A DNA stretch of 64,000 nucleotides, taken from positions 40,576-104,575 of the forward strand of contig JAKPPU010000004.1 of assembly GCA_029547185.1 (NCBI GenBank). Reading direction: 5' to 3'. Made by a program: the position numbers and the translations under genes. Below are positions 28,100 to 33,316 of the stretch, piece by piece (the first letter of the stretch is position 1; each line of letters starts with the position of its first letter). Source of the DNA: Deltaproteobacteria bacterium (GTDB taxonomy: Bacteria; Desulfobacterota; Desulfomonilia; UBA1062). A model generated the notes under the pieces. It was not told where the DNA came from, searched no databases, and saw nothing but the letters and a program-made list of their open reading frames with translations.

Positions 28100-29399
28100 G
28101 GTCCGAATCGTGGGCGGCGGGCTCGCCGGCGTCGAGGCGGCCCACCTTCTCGCCTCGAGGGGAGTAGGCGTCGACCTCTTCGAGATGCGTCCCGCCAGAT
28201 TCACCCCTGCCCACAAGACCGGACTCCTCGGAGAGCTCGTGTGCAGCAATTCCCTCAAAGGCACCGACCCCGAAACCGCCCACGGCCTCCTGAAGAAAGA
28301 GATGCAGGCGCTTGGCTCCCTCGTGATCGAGACCGCCCTGAAGACCCGGGTGCCTGCGGGCAAGGCCCTGGCAGTGGACCGGGAGGCCTTTGCCGAAAAC
28401 CTTACCCGCAGGATCGAATCGAACGAACTCATCTCCCTCATCCGGGAGGAGGTGGAAGACATCGACCCGGAGATCCCCACGATCATCGCATCGGGTCCGC
28501 TCACCTCCGACAGGCTCGCCGCCCGTTTGTCGGAGATGACGGGAAGCTCCCGCCTCTTTTTCTATGACGCCATCTCTCCCATCATCGACGCGGGAAGCAT
28601 CGACTACGGCCATGCCTTCTTCGGCTCCAGGTGGGCCCCCGAAAACACCGACTACCTGAACTGCCCGCTCGACAGAGACCGGTACGAATCGTTCGTCCAT
28701 GAGCTCATCGAGGCGGACAGGGTCAAGGCCCGGGACTTCGAGGATGCCCGCTTCTTCGATGCCTGCCTGCCGATCGAGGTCATTGCGGGAAGGGGAATCG
28801 AGTCGCTGCGGTTCGGCCCCATGAGGCCGGTCGGAATCCATGATCCGAAAAACGGCAGGCTGCCCTACGCGGTCGTGCAGCTCCGCAGGGAGAACCTCAA
28901 AGGCGATGCCTACAACATGGTGGGGTTTCAGACGAGGCTGACGATTCCCGAGCAGAAGCGGATCTTCTCCATGATCCCGGCTTTAAGATCCGCTGCAATC
29001 CTGCGTTATGGGAGCATCCACAGGAACACGTTCCTCGACTCGCCCAGGATTATCAAAGACGACCTGAGCATGCGGGGATATCCGAACGTATATGTTGCCG
29101 GCCAGATCATCGGGGTGGAGGGATACGTCGAGTCCGCCTCGACCGGCCTTATCGCCGGGCTTTCCGTCCTGGCGAGGCTTGGCGGCAGAAGCTTTATCCC
29201 ACCCTCTGCTGATACGGCGATGGGTGCCTTACTTCAGTACATCACCCGGTTTCCCGGGGACAGATTTCAGCCCTCAAACATCAATTTCGGGATAATGGAA
29301 GAGCCGGAAGCTCCCAAGAGGAACAGGAAACAGGTACGGCTTGAGAAGGAATCGGTATCTTTTGATCGCTGGATGAAATCACTGTCTTTATCTGATTAA
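28080..29399 (+). CDS. trmFO: Folate-dependent tRNA (uracil-5-)-methyltransferase
   Basis: VGGGLAGVEAA, ELVCSNSL, FFYDAISP, NMVGFQT, GVEGYVES. Confidence 0.96.
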   Translation: MKKRALKVRIVGGGLAGVEAAHLLASRGVGVDLFEMRPARFTPAHKTGLLGELVCSNSLKGTDPETAHGLLKKEMQALGSLVIETALKTRVPAGKALAVDREAFAENLTRRIESNELISLIREEVEDIDPEIPTIIASGPLTSDRLAARLSEMTGSSRLFFYDAISPIIDAGSIDYGHAFFGSRWAPENTDYLNCPLDRDRYESFVHELIEADRVKARDFEDARFFDACLPIEVIAGRGIESLRFGPMRPVGIHDPKNGRLPYAVVQLRRENLKGDAYNMVGFQTRLTIPEQKRIFSMIPALRSAAILRYGSIHRNTFLDSPRIIKDDLSMRGYPNVYVAGQIIGVEGYVESASTGLIAGLSVLARLGGRSFIPPSADTAMGALLQYITRFPGDRFQPSNINFGIMEEPEAPKRNRKQVRLEKESVSFDRWMKSLSLSD

Positions 29400-29426
29400 T
29401 CTGACGCACTGAAAAATTTGGAACTT

Positions 29427-29452
29427 CGGGGCAGGCTCATCACCTGCCCCGC
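29427..29452. terminator. Hairpin between convergent trmFO and csp
   Basis: CGGGGCAGG-ctcatca-CCTGCCCCG. Confidence 0.6.
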
Positions 29453-29463
29453 GGATGTTCAGG

Positions 29464-29664
29464 CTATGCCTTCATTACGTTAGCTGCCTGCGGCCCTTTG
29501 GGTCCTTTGACCACTTCAAATGTGACCTTGTCACCCTCTGCAAGTGTTTTGAATCCATCTTCCTTGATGGCTGAGTAATGGACGAATACATCGTTGCCGC
29601 CATCCTCAGTAATAAAACCGAAGCCCTTTTTCTCATTAAACCATTTCACTGTTCCTGTAGCCAT
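29464..29664 (-). CDS. Cold shock protein (CspA family)
   Basis: [29 protein letters not shown]; TTGACA promoter element near 29849 implies a long 5' UTR. Confidence 0.97.
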
Positions 29665-29985
29665 GTAATACCTCCATTTTTTGCTGACCCTTTCTCTGGC
29701 AAGGAGAAGTGGCCCGTAATACTTTTGTCTGGAAAAACGGTATTACCAGAAACCTGAGGAAAACTTACAGAGGGTTTTGCCGCGGGTTACTGTGATAATT
29801 TCGTCTCCAGCTAAAAAAGTTCTATAATCCCAAAACCATGCCCTGTCAAGAAAGAATACACTATAAGTCTGGGGAAATACTGTCGTTGAAGATCGGGCCG
29901 GCGGGGCTTCTTCAGTCATATTCATTAGGTGCTATACTCCGGCATCCGGGGCTGATCTTCAGATTTTAAAGAATCGTTCGGTGGA

Positions 29986-30191
29986 CAGGGAGGCAGGGGC
30001 GGCCCTTCCATCACCGGGGATCGCCTTTTGATGCAGCCGAGACCAGCGTCTTAAGGCCGGACCCGTAAACTCGCCTCCCTTCGGGAAGCTCAAACAGTAC
30101 GGGGCCAGGAGGCCTCCGGCTGAAGGTCGGGCTGCATTCGCAAAAGGCGATCAACGGTTCATCCAGGCTCCCACCTGCCTCCCTGGGCACG
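29986..30191. repeat. ~206-bp nested-palindrome intergenic element, copy 1
   Basis: Stems CAGGGAGGCAGG/CCTGCCTCCCTG and ATCGCCTTTTG/CAAAAGGCGAT; core AAACTCGCCTCCCTTCGGGAAGCTCAAACA; homologous to 56399-56604. Confidence 0.85.
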
Positions 30192-30438
30192 TTCTATGAC
30201 AAGCACAAAACAGACATCCTAAAAAAGCAGTACCAGAAGATCTTAAGGTTTAAAGAATACCACTACTGTCCCAACGTTTAGGGGGTAGGAGTCTGTAGAG
30301 CAAGGGTATAAGAGGATTAGCGGGGAGAAATGGTTGTAATCGATTTGAAAATAAATTCTGGAGAGAGCCATACTTCTGCATACCTGCAGAAGGAGATGGC
30401 ACATGATCTCTGGTCGTACCATATTCCCCCAATTGCAA

Positions 30439-30495
30439 GCCCAACCGGCCACAGCAGCCGATGCGCTCCGCACGCGGCTGACCGGCACGTTATCT
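30439..30495 (+). mobile_element. Integron attC-like site 1 (57 bp)
   Basis: R'' GCCCAAC (matches RYYYAAC), inner palindrome CAGCCG-ATGCG-CTC-CGCA-CG-CGGCTG, R' GTTATCT. Confidence 0.8.
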
Positions 30496-30506
30496 TCTTC
30501 GCGCCA

Positions 30507-30545
30507 TTGACATATATGCATGAAAGACGCATACTGATGCATATG
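30507..30545 (+). promoter_or_regulatory. Cassette-internal promoter/operator of vapBC
   Basis: TTGACA-N17-CATACT; two ATGCAT palindromes (30516, 30537) overlap the promoter; ATG only 7 nt after the -10 box, so likely leaderless. Confidence 0.7.
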
Positions 30546-30740
30546 AGAACGACATTAAACATTGATGATGAAACCTTAAAAAAAGCAAGCAAGCTGACAG
30601 GGATCAAAGAGAAGACGGCTTTGGTTCAGCGTGGACTTGAAGCGCTTATTACGATCGAAAGCAGCAAAAGGCTTTCAAAACTGGGCGGAATAGAGAAGGA
30701 TCTCCAGCCGATTCCCCGGCGAAGACAGTCCGGATCCTGA
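30543..30740 (+). CDS. vapB: VapB-type antitoxin
   Basis: MRTTLNIDDETLKKASKLTGIKEKTALVQRGLEAL; TGATG overlap with the PIN-domain gene. Confidence 0.88.
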   Translation: MRTTLNIDDETLKKASKLTGIKEKTALVQRGLEALITIESSKRLSKLGGIEKDLQPIPRRRQSGS

Positions 30741-31111
30741 TGATGGTCCTGGTAGATACCTCCGTTTGGATCGACCATTTTAAAAAAGGAAATGCCTCTC
30801 TTGAAAAGCTGCTGCTTGACGTAGAGGTGGCATGTCATCCTTTTATCATCGGCGAGCTCGCCTGCGGCAACCTGAAAAACAGCAACGAGATCCTTACATT
30901 GCTTCATTCTCTCCCTATGGCACCAATCGTGGAGCATGACGAGATCCTGTACTTCATCGAGAGCAATAATCTCATGGGAATCGGAATAGGTCTCATTGAT
31001 GTGCATTTACTTGCATCTGCTCATCTTACTCATGCCTATCTTTGGACCATGGACAAGAAACTGCTCAATGCTTCGGATGCTCTCGGTATTTCATACACTG
31101 GCCGAAGATAA
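30740..31111 (+). CDS. vapC: VapC PIN-domain ribonuclease toxin
   Basis: VLVDTSVWIDH, IIGELACG, IDVHLLASA, LWTMDK; the stop TAA lies inside the R'' box of attC site 2. Confidence 0.92.
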   Translation: MMVLVDTSVWIDHFKKGNASLEKLLLDVEVACHPFIIGELACGNLKNSNEILTLLHSLPMAPIVEHDEILYFIESNNLMGIGIGLIDVHLLASAHLTHAYLWTMDKKLLNASDALGISYTGRR

Positions 31112-31163
31112 CCCCGCCACTGCAGACGACGCGCTACGCGCGCGGGTGACCGGAACGTTGAGC
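31106..31163 (+). mobile_element. Integron attC-like site 2 (58 bp)
   Basis: R'' AGATAAC, then CCCGCCACTGCAGACGACGCGCTACGCGCGCGGGTGACCGGAAC, R' GTTGAGC (matches GTTRRRY); closely similar to site 1. Confidence 0.82.
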
Positions 31164-31194
31164 CTTTTATCACTTAACCAAGCAGGAGACATCT

Positions 31195-31659
31195 ATGACG
31201 AGACTAATAGCAATCGTTCAATGCCATCTCGTTCATCAACGGTGCCCCGGGTATTTCTGCGATAGAGCATTCGTGAACCGAACAGGGGGCTTTAACGGGC
31301 TCGATCTATCAGACGATGTCAGAAAGCTATCTTTTACCTGCGGCGGATGCTGCGGCAGGGCTTTGCACCGGAAGCTCGCTCTCCTGAAGAGGAAAGCAAA
31401 ACAATGTGACGACATCGGATCTGAGGATATATTGGTCGTGTTGGCCAGCTGCATAACGAAAGATAATTACCATGGCCCGGCTTGCCCGCATGTGGATTAT
31501 CTCAAGGTATTGATACAAAAAGCGGGATTATCCTTTTCCTGCGATACCCATGTATCGAAAAAAGCTGAAGAAAAAAGAGCCTCGGGTATATATAAATCAT
31601 CAGCCAATGCATTCAGCGGACACGGGACTTCCCTAAAGAAAGGGAATGCTGAGACATAA
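31195..31659 (+). CDS. CGGC domain (putative metal-binding) protein
   Basis: QC...RCPGYFC...TCGGCCG...ASCI...CPH; AGGAG RBS shortly after attC site 2. Confidence 0.85.
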   Translation: MTRLIAIVQCHLVHQRCPGYFCDRAFVNRTGGFNGLDLSDDVRKLSFTCGGCCGRALHRKLALLKRKAKQCDDIGSEDILVVLASCITKDNYHGPACPHVDYLKVLIQKAGLSFSCDTHVSKKAEEKRASGIYKSSANAFSGHGTSLKKGNAET

Positions 31660-31686
31660 CTGAAAAAACACTTCAGCACCGCAAGA

Positions 31687-31720
31687 GAAGGCAGGGTTTA
31701 TTACCCTGCCTTTGTTATTT
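31687..31720 (+). terminator. Rho-independent terminator
   Basis: AAGGCAGGGT-ttatt-ACCCTGCCTT followed by TGTTATTT. Confidence 0.7.
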
Positions 31721-31864
31721 CTGCTGTAATGAATAATCCTCGGATGCATCTCAGAAACATGGAGAGTGCGCACCTCCTTCCCCGAACCACATTTCATCCT
31801 TGATGCACATGGGTGAAGTTGATATCACCTCCGTACTATAATCATATAAGGGAGCTTTCGAGAT

Positions 31865-33316
31865 ATGAACGCAATCGAAGGACTGAAACCGGAGCGCCTG
31901 TGGCACTACTTCGAGGAGATTTCAAAGATACCTCGGGAGTCAAAGCACGAGGGGATGATCAGGGAGTACATCGTCCGGACGGCGGGCCGCCTCGGGCTCA
32001 GGAACGTTGTCGATGCCGCGGGCAATGTTGTGGTGTACAAGCCGGGGACAGGCTCCGGCGGGACCGTCATCCTTCAGTCCCACCTCGATATGGTGTGTGA
32101 GCAGAACGAGGGCGTAAGCCACGACTTCAGGAAGGATCCGATCAGGCTCGTCCGGGATGACGGCTGGATCCATGCCGAGGGCACCACCCTCGGTGCGGAC
32201 AACGGCATCGGCGTGGCCGCCATGCTCGCCGTGATGGAAGACGGCACGCTCGTCCATCCCGACCTCGAGTTCCTCTTCACCATCGACGAGGAGACCGGGC
32301 TCACCGGCGCTAACATGCTCGATGCAGGGCTCTTCACAGGAAGGACGCTCATCAACCTCGATTCCGAGGAAGACGGCACCCTGTTCATCGGCTGTGCAGG
32401 CGGGAAGAACACCGACATCTCGCTCGATGTCTCCTTCGAGGATGCACCTGCCGGTCTCGTGCCCGCGGCGGTCAAGGTCACCGGCCTCCTGGGCGGCCAT
32501 TCCGGCACCGACATCCACCGGGGCCGGGGCAATGCCGTAAAGCTCCTCGTCAGGCTCCTCAAGGGAGCAGCCCAAATCCTGCCGTACCGCCTGGTGGACC
32601 TCTCGGGCGGCAGCAAGCACAACGTCATCCCGCGGGAGGCTTTTGCCCTCATTCTCTTGAAGCCTGAGGACTTCGGACGGCTCGAGGAGCTGGCCAGGGG
32701 AATGAGCGGGACCTTTGCCGCGGAATTGAGCGGGATCGACGACAACGTCCGGGTGATCGTCGGGCAGGAAACCCTCTCCGAAAGGCAGGCGGTTTCTGAC
32801 TCGGATGCCGCCCTGATCCTCGATCTGCTCCACGGTCTGCCCCACGGGGTCATGCAGATGAACGAGGCGCGGGGAAACTTCGTGGTGACGTCCACGAACC
32901 TCGCCATCTGCAGGATGGAGGGTTCGCGTCTGTACGTTCTCACGAACCAGCGGAGCGCCTACAGGTCTTCCATCGAGGACGTCTCCGAGATGGCGGCGTC
33001 CATCGGCAGGCTCGCGGGCGCGCACGTCACCAAGGCCCATGACTACCCTGCCTGGAGGCCGGATTTCCAGTCGAGGGTTTTGCGCATCTCGAAAGAGGTG
33101 TATGAAGGGCTCTTCGGCAGACAACCCGAGGTCAGGGTCATCCACGCGGGCTTAGAGTGCGCCGTGTTCGGAGAGAAGATCCCGGGGCTCGACATGATCT
33201 CGCTGGGCCCGACCATCGAGCAGGCGCACTCTCCTTCGGAGCGCGTCCTCATCGGCGCGGTCGAGAACATGTGGGTTTTCCTTGCCGGGCTCCTCAAGAG
33301 ACTGGCCAGGGAATAG
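31865..33316 (+). CDS. pepD: Aminoacyl-histidine dipeptidase (peptidase M20C)
   Basis: LQSHLDMV, TTLGADNGIG, DEETGLTGA, GGHSG, IHAGLEC, HSPSE. Confidence 0.93.
   Translation: MNAIEGLKPERLWHYFEEISKIPRESKHEGMIREYIVRTAGRLGLRNVVDAAGNVVVYKPGTGSGGTVILQSHLDMVCEQNEGVSHDFRKDPIRLVRDDGWIHAEGTTLGADNGIGVAAMLAVMEDGTLVHPDLEFLFTIDEETGLTGANMLDAGLFTGRTLINLDSEEDGTLFIGCAGGKNTDISLDVSFEDAPAGLVPAAVKVTGLLGGHSGTDIHRGRGNAVKLLVRLLKGAAQILPYRLVDLSGGSKHNVIPREAFALILLKPEDFGRLEELARGMSGTFAAELSGIDDNVRVIVGQETLSERQAVSDSDAALILDLLHGLPHGVMQMNEARGNFVVTSTNLAICRMEGSRLYVLTNQRSAYRSSIEDVSEMAASIGRLAGAHVTKAHDYPAWRPDFQSRVLRISKEVYEGLFGRQPEVRVIHAGLECAVFGEKIPGLDMISLGPTIEQAHSPSERVLIGAVENMWVFLAGLLKRLARE

Follow-up and report, generated by a model that had tools for sequence, protein, structure and literature searches.

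The window analysed here, by which we mean the whole stretch of 64,000 nucleotides, carries a vapBC toxin–antitoxin pair between csp and pepD, with a copy of a short repeat on either side of the pair. The locus raises the question of whether vapBC forms an integron gene cassette with an attC site at either end and, if it does, where the cognate integrase resides and how the cassette came to lie at this place. The first-pass annotation had described two AAC...GTT sites of 57–58 bp flanking vapBC, and two such sites were found, 57 nt and 58 nt long, on the same strand and both matching family models (Table 1). The two copies share a 47-nt direct repeat (30445–30491 and 31113–31159, both on the + strand) with 83% identity, and the start-to-start spacing of sites 1 and 2 on this strand is 668 nt.

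Table 1 Coordinates of the features at the vapBC locus (positions in the window).
Feature	Position	Strand	Description	Evidence
High-copy hairpin-forming repeat, MITE-like	29966..30259		~220–290 bp	BLAST, >20 contigs of the same assembly
IS4-family left end	30262..30436	+	terminal repeat, leader and first 11 codons	aligned to full copies in G001, G004 and G024
attC site 1	30439..30495	+	57 nt, R'' GCCCAAC to R' GTTATCT	R1 54.9 bits, R2 50.2 bits
vapBC gene cassette	30490..31157	+	668 bp, from the TT after the site 1 G to the G of the site 2 GTT	
Promoter-like site TTGACA-17-CATACT	30507..30535	+	10/12 matches	also kept in three orthologous cassettes
Inverted ATATGCAT / ATGCATAT motifs around the -10 hexamer	30514..30545		candidate VapB operator	sequence reading
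vapB antitoxin gene	30543..30740	+	65 aa	PF09957 53.3 bits, cut-off 23.4
vapC PIN-domain toxin gene	30740..31111	+	123 aa	PF01850 24.9 bits, cut-off 23.6
attC site 2	31106..31163	+	58 nt, R'' AGATAAC to R' GTTGAGC	R1 43.9 bits, R2 41.1 bits
CGGC-domain gene	31195..31659	+	begins 31 nt after site 2	PF08821 62.6 bits
Terminator-like hairpin	31687..31713	+	after the CGGC gene	no R2 match with filters off

The terminal boxes of attC sites follow the consensus RYYYAAC for R'' and GTTRRRY for R', in which AAC and GTT are invariant. Both triplets were present in the two window sites and were invariant across the eight-site family alignment described below. The boxes GCCCAAC and GTTGAGC match the consensus; AGATAAC and GTTATCT match it only partly, yet are exact complements of each other. 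The predicted crossover in site 1 is the G|TT at 30489/30490. The annotated reverse complementarity between the start and the end of the cassette was recovered in full, as GTTATCTTC (30489–30497) and GAAGATAAC (31104–31112) are complementary in inverted orientation at nine of nine positions. Further 9-nt inverted pairs arise by chance within the same 1 kb (two of them listed, I3 and I4), and the weight of this match therefore lies in its position: with AAC/GTT fixed, six more bases pair at exactly the predicted places, for which our own arithmetic gives a chance of about 1 in 4096. The vapC stop codon TAA (31109–31111) falls inside the R'' box of site 2 (31106–31112), also as annotated. The outer boxes, GCCCAAC and GTTGAGC, are complementary at six of seven positions, which is weak evidence, since boxes that simply follow the consensus would agree at three or more of the four free positions in about one case in three (again our own arithmetic). 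All that the first-pass annotation stated about the sequence itself was borne out. Two of the six pairs of the L box are mismatched in site 2 and one inner-stem pair is mismatched in site 1, and one or both of the window sites may be decaying.

Folded singly on either strand, the sites gave z-scores of -1.6 to +0.4 relative to shuffled sequence, which are not significant. An Rfam scan of 29300–31900 at E<=10 assigned the sites to no family and yielded, besides chance matches, a cspA thermoregulator below threshold; Rfam has no attC family in it. The sites were therefore judged by comparison, using copies of the repeat collected by a DNA search of 40 related genomes. A 10-site MAFFT alignment (A1) misplaced the extra base of site 2 and was set aside, so the family was modelled without the window's two sites. 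One covariance model (R1) was made from eight gapless-aligned sites of five related genomes and a larger one (R2) from 53 sites, none from the window in either case; the attC identity of the window sites rests on these two models, both built in this analysis. Over the whole window at E<=10, R1 matched only 30439–30495 (E 1.3e-14) and 31107–31163 (E 4.6e-11). R2, run on the 64-kb window with filters off, recovered the same two sites, and its next best match reached 12.4 bits (E 1.2).

The eight-site alignment has in common the AAC...GTT ends and a two-helix hairpin, which was paired in 89.3% of cells, compared with 24–33% when the partners were slid by 1–3 columns. Changes on both sides were seen in 8 of the 21 hairpin pairs, and the observed covariation score was reached by none of 500 shuffles. 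The support for the hairpin is thus family-wide covariation and not single-sequence energy. In attC sites generally, extra unpaired (extrahelical) bases on the R''-L'' arm set the choice of strand. The family structure counts 28 positions in its 5' arm and 26 in its 3' arm, with an A bulging out at column 23, a difference whose direction would fit this rule. A third candidate attC, placed after the CGGC gene (ACATAAC...GTTATTT), was rejected as a terminator-like hairpin.

The same family of sites occurs in dense arrays next to integron integrase genes in genomes of the same genus. In one congener (G008:C43), nine R2 sites, all on the + strand, begin 817 nt from a divergent intI, and another genome (G001:C20) has 12 R2 sites upstream of its intI, every one of them on the - strand; the relative orientation of array and intI is correct in both. 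Sites also lie beside intI in G020:C33 and G005:C4. A further contig of G008 (G008:C8) holds 15 same-strand R2 sites in 18 kb; there, the R' box of a site was found to be complementary to the R'' box of the site listed after it (7/7 and 6/7). The dense same-strand arrays beside intI show the window repeat to be the attC family of this lineage's chromosomal integron. We also weighed a reading in which the repeats are generic palindromes, terminators or Xer-type (pdif-like) module borders that flank a toxin–antitoxin pair by chance. The non-significant single-sequence folding and the lack of an Rfam match for the sites speak for it, but it is at odds with the hairpin covariation across the family, with the AAC...GTT ends and the exact swapping of neighbouring genes at G|TT, and with the same-strand arrays directly beside intI. 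We regard this reading as strongly disfavoured and extremely improbable.

The first-pass annotation had reported no integrase in the window and had suggested looking for intI, and for further copies of this attC family, elsewhere in the genome. The former holds for the entire 264-kb contig of the window (C136), on which none of the assembly's nine matches to the integron integrase model TIGR02249 (E<=0.001) is located, and both searches of the genome were successful. An intact intI is present on contig C210 of the same assembly, as an open 327-aa frame with no stops that scores 452.7 bits against TIGR02249 (cut-off 265). The encoded protein is 94–96% identical to those of three congeners (G006, G007 and G008) and 81% identical to that of a fourth, and the far-side flank of the gene is syntenic with the congeners. 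Similarity stops upstream of intI at an attI-like GTTAGGG, beyond which the first cassettes differ, and the array runs off the contig end. The first cassette past GTTAGGG (G000:C210:28347-29015, L178) codes for a large protein, hydrophobic in an N-terminal segment, that runs off the contig end. The assembly is a 215-contig metagenome-assembled genome with an estimated contamination of 5.3%, in which intI and the window are on different contigs; because of the 94–96% identity and the synteny with congeners, we attribute C210 to this organism despite the contamination.

TIGR02249 scored above its curated cut-off in 11 of the 41 genomes searched, the window's own included. Within the genus, 8 of 11 genomes had a match at E<=1e-40, seven of them above the cut-off. 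The comparison bore out a sedentary chromosomal integron carried by this lineage, with its predicted attI-like point at GTTAGGG. As for further copies of the attC family in the window's own assembly, seven same-strand sites were found in 12 kb of contig C98 (C98:353-11765), an array that is possibly the continuation of the C210 integron. Pairs of sites were found at C117:35259-36069 and C117:76898-77306, and single sites at C211:112516 and C206:21311.

The borders of homology between the vapBC unit and its relatives lie at the sites. The vapBC cassette is present at other places in three congeners (G005, G006 and G008) with 82–84% identity. Homology sets in at the G|TT of the upstream attC or immediately behind it (G005 and G006) and ends a few bases after GAAGATAAC (G005, G006 and G008). 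In other genomes, six sites upstream of the cassette and six downstream of it keep the GTTAT(C/A)... start and the AGATAAC end, while the outer boxes vary. A search with VapC, limited to one genome per species, yielded 433 relatives, the best 80 loci of which, from many phyla, were examined. R2 matches were found in 19 of these 80 best loci, adjoining vapBC in 14 (one of them partial) and on both sides of it in six. The box AGATAAC stood at the stop codon in 22 of the 80, with an upstream GTTATC also present in 14, compared with a background expectation for AGATAAC at the stop of about 0.4 in 80, derived from a background rate that includes these same loci. Sequence comparison with these genomes showed the vapBC unit to behave there like a mobile cassette with G|TT boundaries. 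Separately, three loci (L043, G006:C100, 705–837; L051; L099) have vapBC cassettes with attC variants of about 105–133 nt that carry the same end boxes, from which it follows that the variable loop changes while the cassette stays constant.

The cassette content is that of a VapBC type II toxin–antitoxin pair, with toxicity and neutralisation as predicted functions. The vapB gene is upstream, and the vapC start overlaps the vapB stop by 1 nt. VapC scores only just above the Pfam PIN cut-off, and its match to the NCBIfam VapC equivalog (27.3 bits) is below the cut-off of that model (80). Of the promoter and operator that the first-pass annotation gave to the cassette, the promoter-like site is present, with 10 of 12 matches, and is conserved; candidate operator motifs are the inverted repeats around the -10 hexamer, to which VapB binding is predicted. 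A gap of 7 nt, with no Shine–Dalgarno sequence in it, separates the -10 hexamer from the vapB ATG (30530–30545), a layout conserved in the three orthologous cassettes, so that the vapBC mRNA may be leaderless.

The genomic setting of the cassette differs from that of the arrays. The distance between csp and pepD is 208–413 bp, with no such site in between, in nine of the 11 same-genus genomes, compared with about 1.9 kb of mosaic DNA in the window. None of the R1 matches lay in the csp-pepD loci of the nine congeners, and no match in G001 or G005 was syntenic to the csp-pepD locus. The order within the mosaic is hairpin repeat, IS4-family left end, site 1, vapBC, site 2, CGGC gene and terminator-like hairpin. 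The hairpin repeat has long inverted arms, matches its copies on other contigs of the assembly at 70–89% identity, gave no Rfam match, and is either MITE-like or a structured RNA gene. On another contig of this assembly (G000:C25, 1581 bp), two near-identical blocks of about 230 bp lie about 1.1 kb apart, each after a stop codon and each with a long inverted repeat inside. The IS4-family element breaks off 3 nt before site 1. Its transposase in G001, where a full copy of about 1.35 kb is found (G001:C24), has DUF4372 and DDE_Tnp_1 domains; BLAST found no full copy in the window's assembly. Two other interpretations of the DNA upstream of site 1 were discarded: a non-coding cassette at 30262–30436, as this segment is the truncated left end of the IS4-family element, and a group II intron or IS1111-type element that targets attC, as there was no Rfam intron match and the element is of the DDE IS4 type. 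Elsewhere in this region, the csp leader (29423–29821, - strand) scored 68.2 bits against the Rfam cspA thermoregulator RF01766, below its gathering score of 78. In one congener (L014, G010:C192) a GC-rich repeat of about 30 nt, absent from the other congeners, is present twice in the otherwise empty csp-pepD intergenic region.

On the right-hand side, the 5' leader of the CGGC gene is homologous to that of the G019 gene from just after GTTGAGCC onwards, which makes a G|TT junction with ordinary DNA the right-hand end of the cluster. The possibility that the CGGC gene is itself a cassette was dismissed, as none of 52 homologous loci gave an R2 match. No promoter-like site of its own was seen upstream of the gene, which is absent from the csp-pepD locus in congeners. 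With the cassette lying outside the integron platform and in a mosaic insertion, we consider it highly probable that the unit is a 668-bp self-promoted vapBC integron cassette between two attC sites, and hence an off-platform CALIN of two sites. The first-pass annotation had suggested a CALIN, or a relic served by an integrase elsewhere. This fits a contig without an integrase in a genome with an intact intI on C210, and the data support a CALIN that, if it is served, depends on an integrase encoded elsewhere in the genome.

Three routes may have brought the block to this locus: IntI may have inserted it off the platform, a fragment of an array may have been rearranged in association with an IS, or attC x attC recombination may have placed the cassette in a lone site. 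The 6/7 match of the outer boxes does not discriminate among the three. The last of these corresponds to the insertion into a pre-existing attC put forward in the first-pass annotation. Under it, an attC (GCCCAAC...GTTGAGC) resident on its own in front of the CGGC gene would have received a circular vapBC by attC x attC recombination, leaving two hybrid sites. The 6/7 complementarity of the outer boxes agrees with this, and so does the observation, predicted by this model, that the body of site 2 resembles the attC following vapBC in L042, L044 and G005 while the body of site 1 does not; the same body pattern, however, is expected for any cassette within an array, and the box match itself has the chance expectation given above. 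No genome with a lone site was found among the relatives searched, and site 1 is preceded not by a cassette but by the truncated IS, so that its earlier context is lost. The box match holds but, being weak, does not establish the history drawn from it, and we think this origin unlikely.

A different origin is that a piece of an array, made up of an upstream cassette end with its attC and vapBC with its own, was moved or cut off by IS-associated recombination or by deletion, leaving site 1 orphaned. The IS left end truncated 3 nt before site 1, with the high-copy repeat beside it, points in this direction, as does the presence of the same cassette inside multi-site arrays in G005 and G008, and rearrangement is among the routes to CALINs listed by Cury et al. 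2016 (PMC4889954). Such a break does not readily account for the right border, a clean G|TT junction with the apparently native 5' leader of a non-cassette CGGC gene, which looks more like site-specific recombination than a random break; nor was a full IS copy found in the assembly. We hold rearrangement to be possible, though short of probable. In the remaining origin, IntI would have inserted one or two cassettes at a non-att site (attG, GWT) about 35 nt upstream of the CGGC start, with the left junction later erased by IS insertion and deletion. In favour of such an event are the homology to the G019 CGGC leader that starts right after GTTGAGCC, the non-cassette nature of the CGGC gene, the further isolated sites and site pairs in the same assembly, and the experimental demonstration of genome insertion at GWT (bioRxiv 10.1101/2022.09.11.507474). 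The left junction is not preserved, however, and with the CGGC gene missing from this locus in congeners the target context is not reconstructable; we judge this origin somewhat unlikely.

An empty allele would join 30489 directly to 31158, and the first-pass annotation had proposed comparing related genomes for it. None was found: the nine congener loci are without the whole block, and no lone attC site was present at this locus in the 40 relatives searched. In public metagenomes, at least 88% of the words sampled from 29900–31800 were present in 20 runs from 15 studies, 11 of which are possible sources of this DNA and hence not independent support. Contigs were examined for 4 of the 24 listed runs, from four studies. 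They bridged site 1 in three of the four runs and site 2 in all four, with no differences in X19, X16 and X20 and five differing letters in X12. A joint skipping 30490–31157 was absent from the contigs of these four runs, contigs being prone to drop rare variants, and the sole joint listed in them (31997 to 32187) is unrelated to the cassette. The arrangement of site 1, vapBC and site 2 is stable in public metagenomes.

The way in which the CALIN would work can be outlined from established integron biology, which is the basis of the excision and killing steps given here. Sites 1 and 2, their bottom strands folded, would be recombined by IntI at G|TT, and vapBC would leave as a circle, the attC of which would be AGATAAC...G joined to TTATCT. 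Cells that lose the cassette would be selected against, since a stable PIN toxin would presumably outlast the antitoxin; such 'cassette-loss killing' has been described for toxin–antitoxin cassettes. In addition, transcription from the cassette promoter may continue across site 2 into the CGGC gene, which has no promoter-like site of its own. A more far-reaching proposal is that IntI placed vapBC at a non-att site 31 nt upstream of a CGGC gene that lost its promoter region, and that the cassette now has two roles, those of an addictive anchor and of a promoter for the gene. We consider this quite improbable; if true, it would be a natural, species-wide fixed, genome-inserted cassette that has been domesticated as a mobile promoter.

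Compared with known systems, the locus has much in common with CALINs, defined by Cury et al. 2016 (PMC4889954) as clusters of two or more attC sites, spaced by less than 4 kb, that have no intI in their vicinity; in about half of those published, according to the same text, IntI is encoded elsewhere in the genome. Shared with that description are at least two same-strand attC sites less than 4 kb apart, no intI nearby and an IntI elsewhere. The present cluster differs in its minimal size, two sites and one cassette, and in having been called with lineage-specific models instead of IntegronFinder. Self-promoted toxin–antitoxin cassettes have already been described for chromosomal integrons (Richard et al. 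2024, PMC13108822). With those of the Vibrio cholerae superintegron, vapBC shares a type II operon, its own promoter and an attC end, and by analogy the same stabilising logic, in which loss kills, is predicted here. The difference is that vapBC is the sole cassette of an off-array two-site cluster in a housekeeping intergenic region and encodes a PIN/VapC toxin. The attG cassettes and SALINs (bioRxiv 10.1101/2022.09.11.507474) likewise lie outside attI and the array and have a 3' G|TT junction to chromosomal DNA, but a single attG insertion leaves one attC, whereas there are two here, and an IS remnant has taken the place of the left junction.

Both self-promoted toxin–antitoxin cassettes and CALINs are already well described, and the locus is a clear but ordinary example of them. 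The understanding of integrons is unchanged by it. Its value lies in a clean annotation and in a possible natural case of off-platform cassette insertion. The analysis adds a well-documented off-integron toxin–antitoxin cassette in an uncultured anaerobe lineage, provides an attC model specific to that lineage, and points to a vapBC cassette family with an AGATAAC end box that circulates across several phyla.
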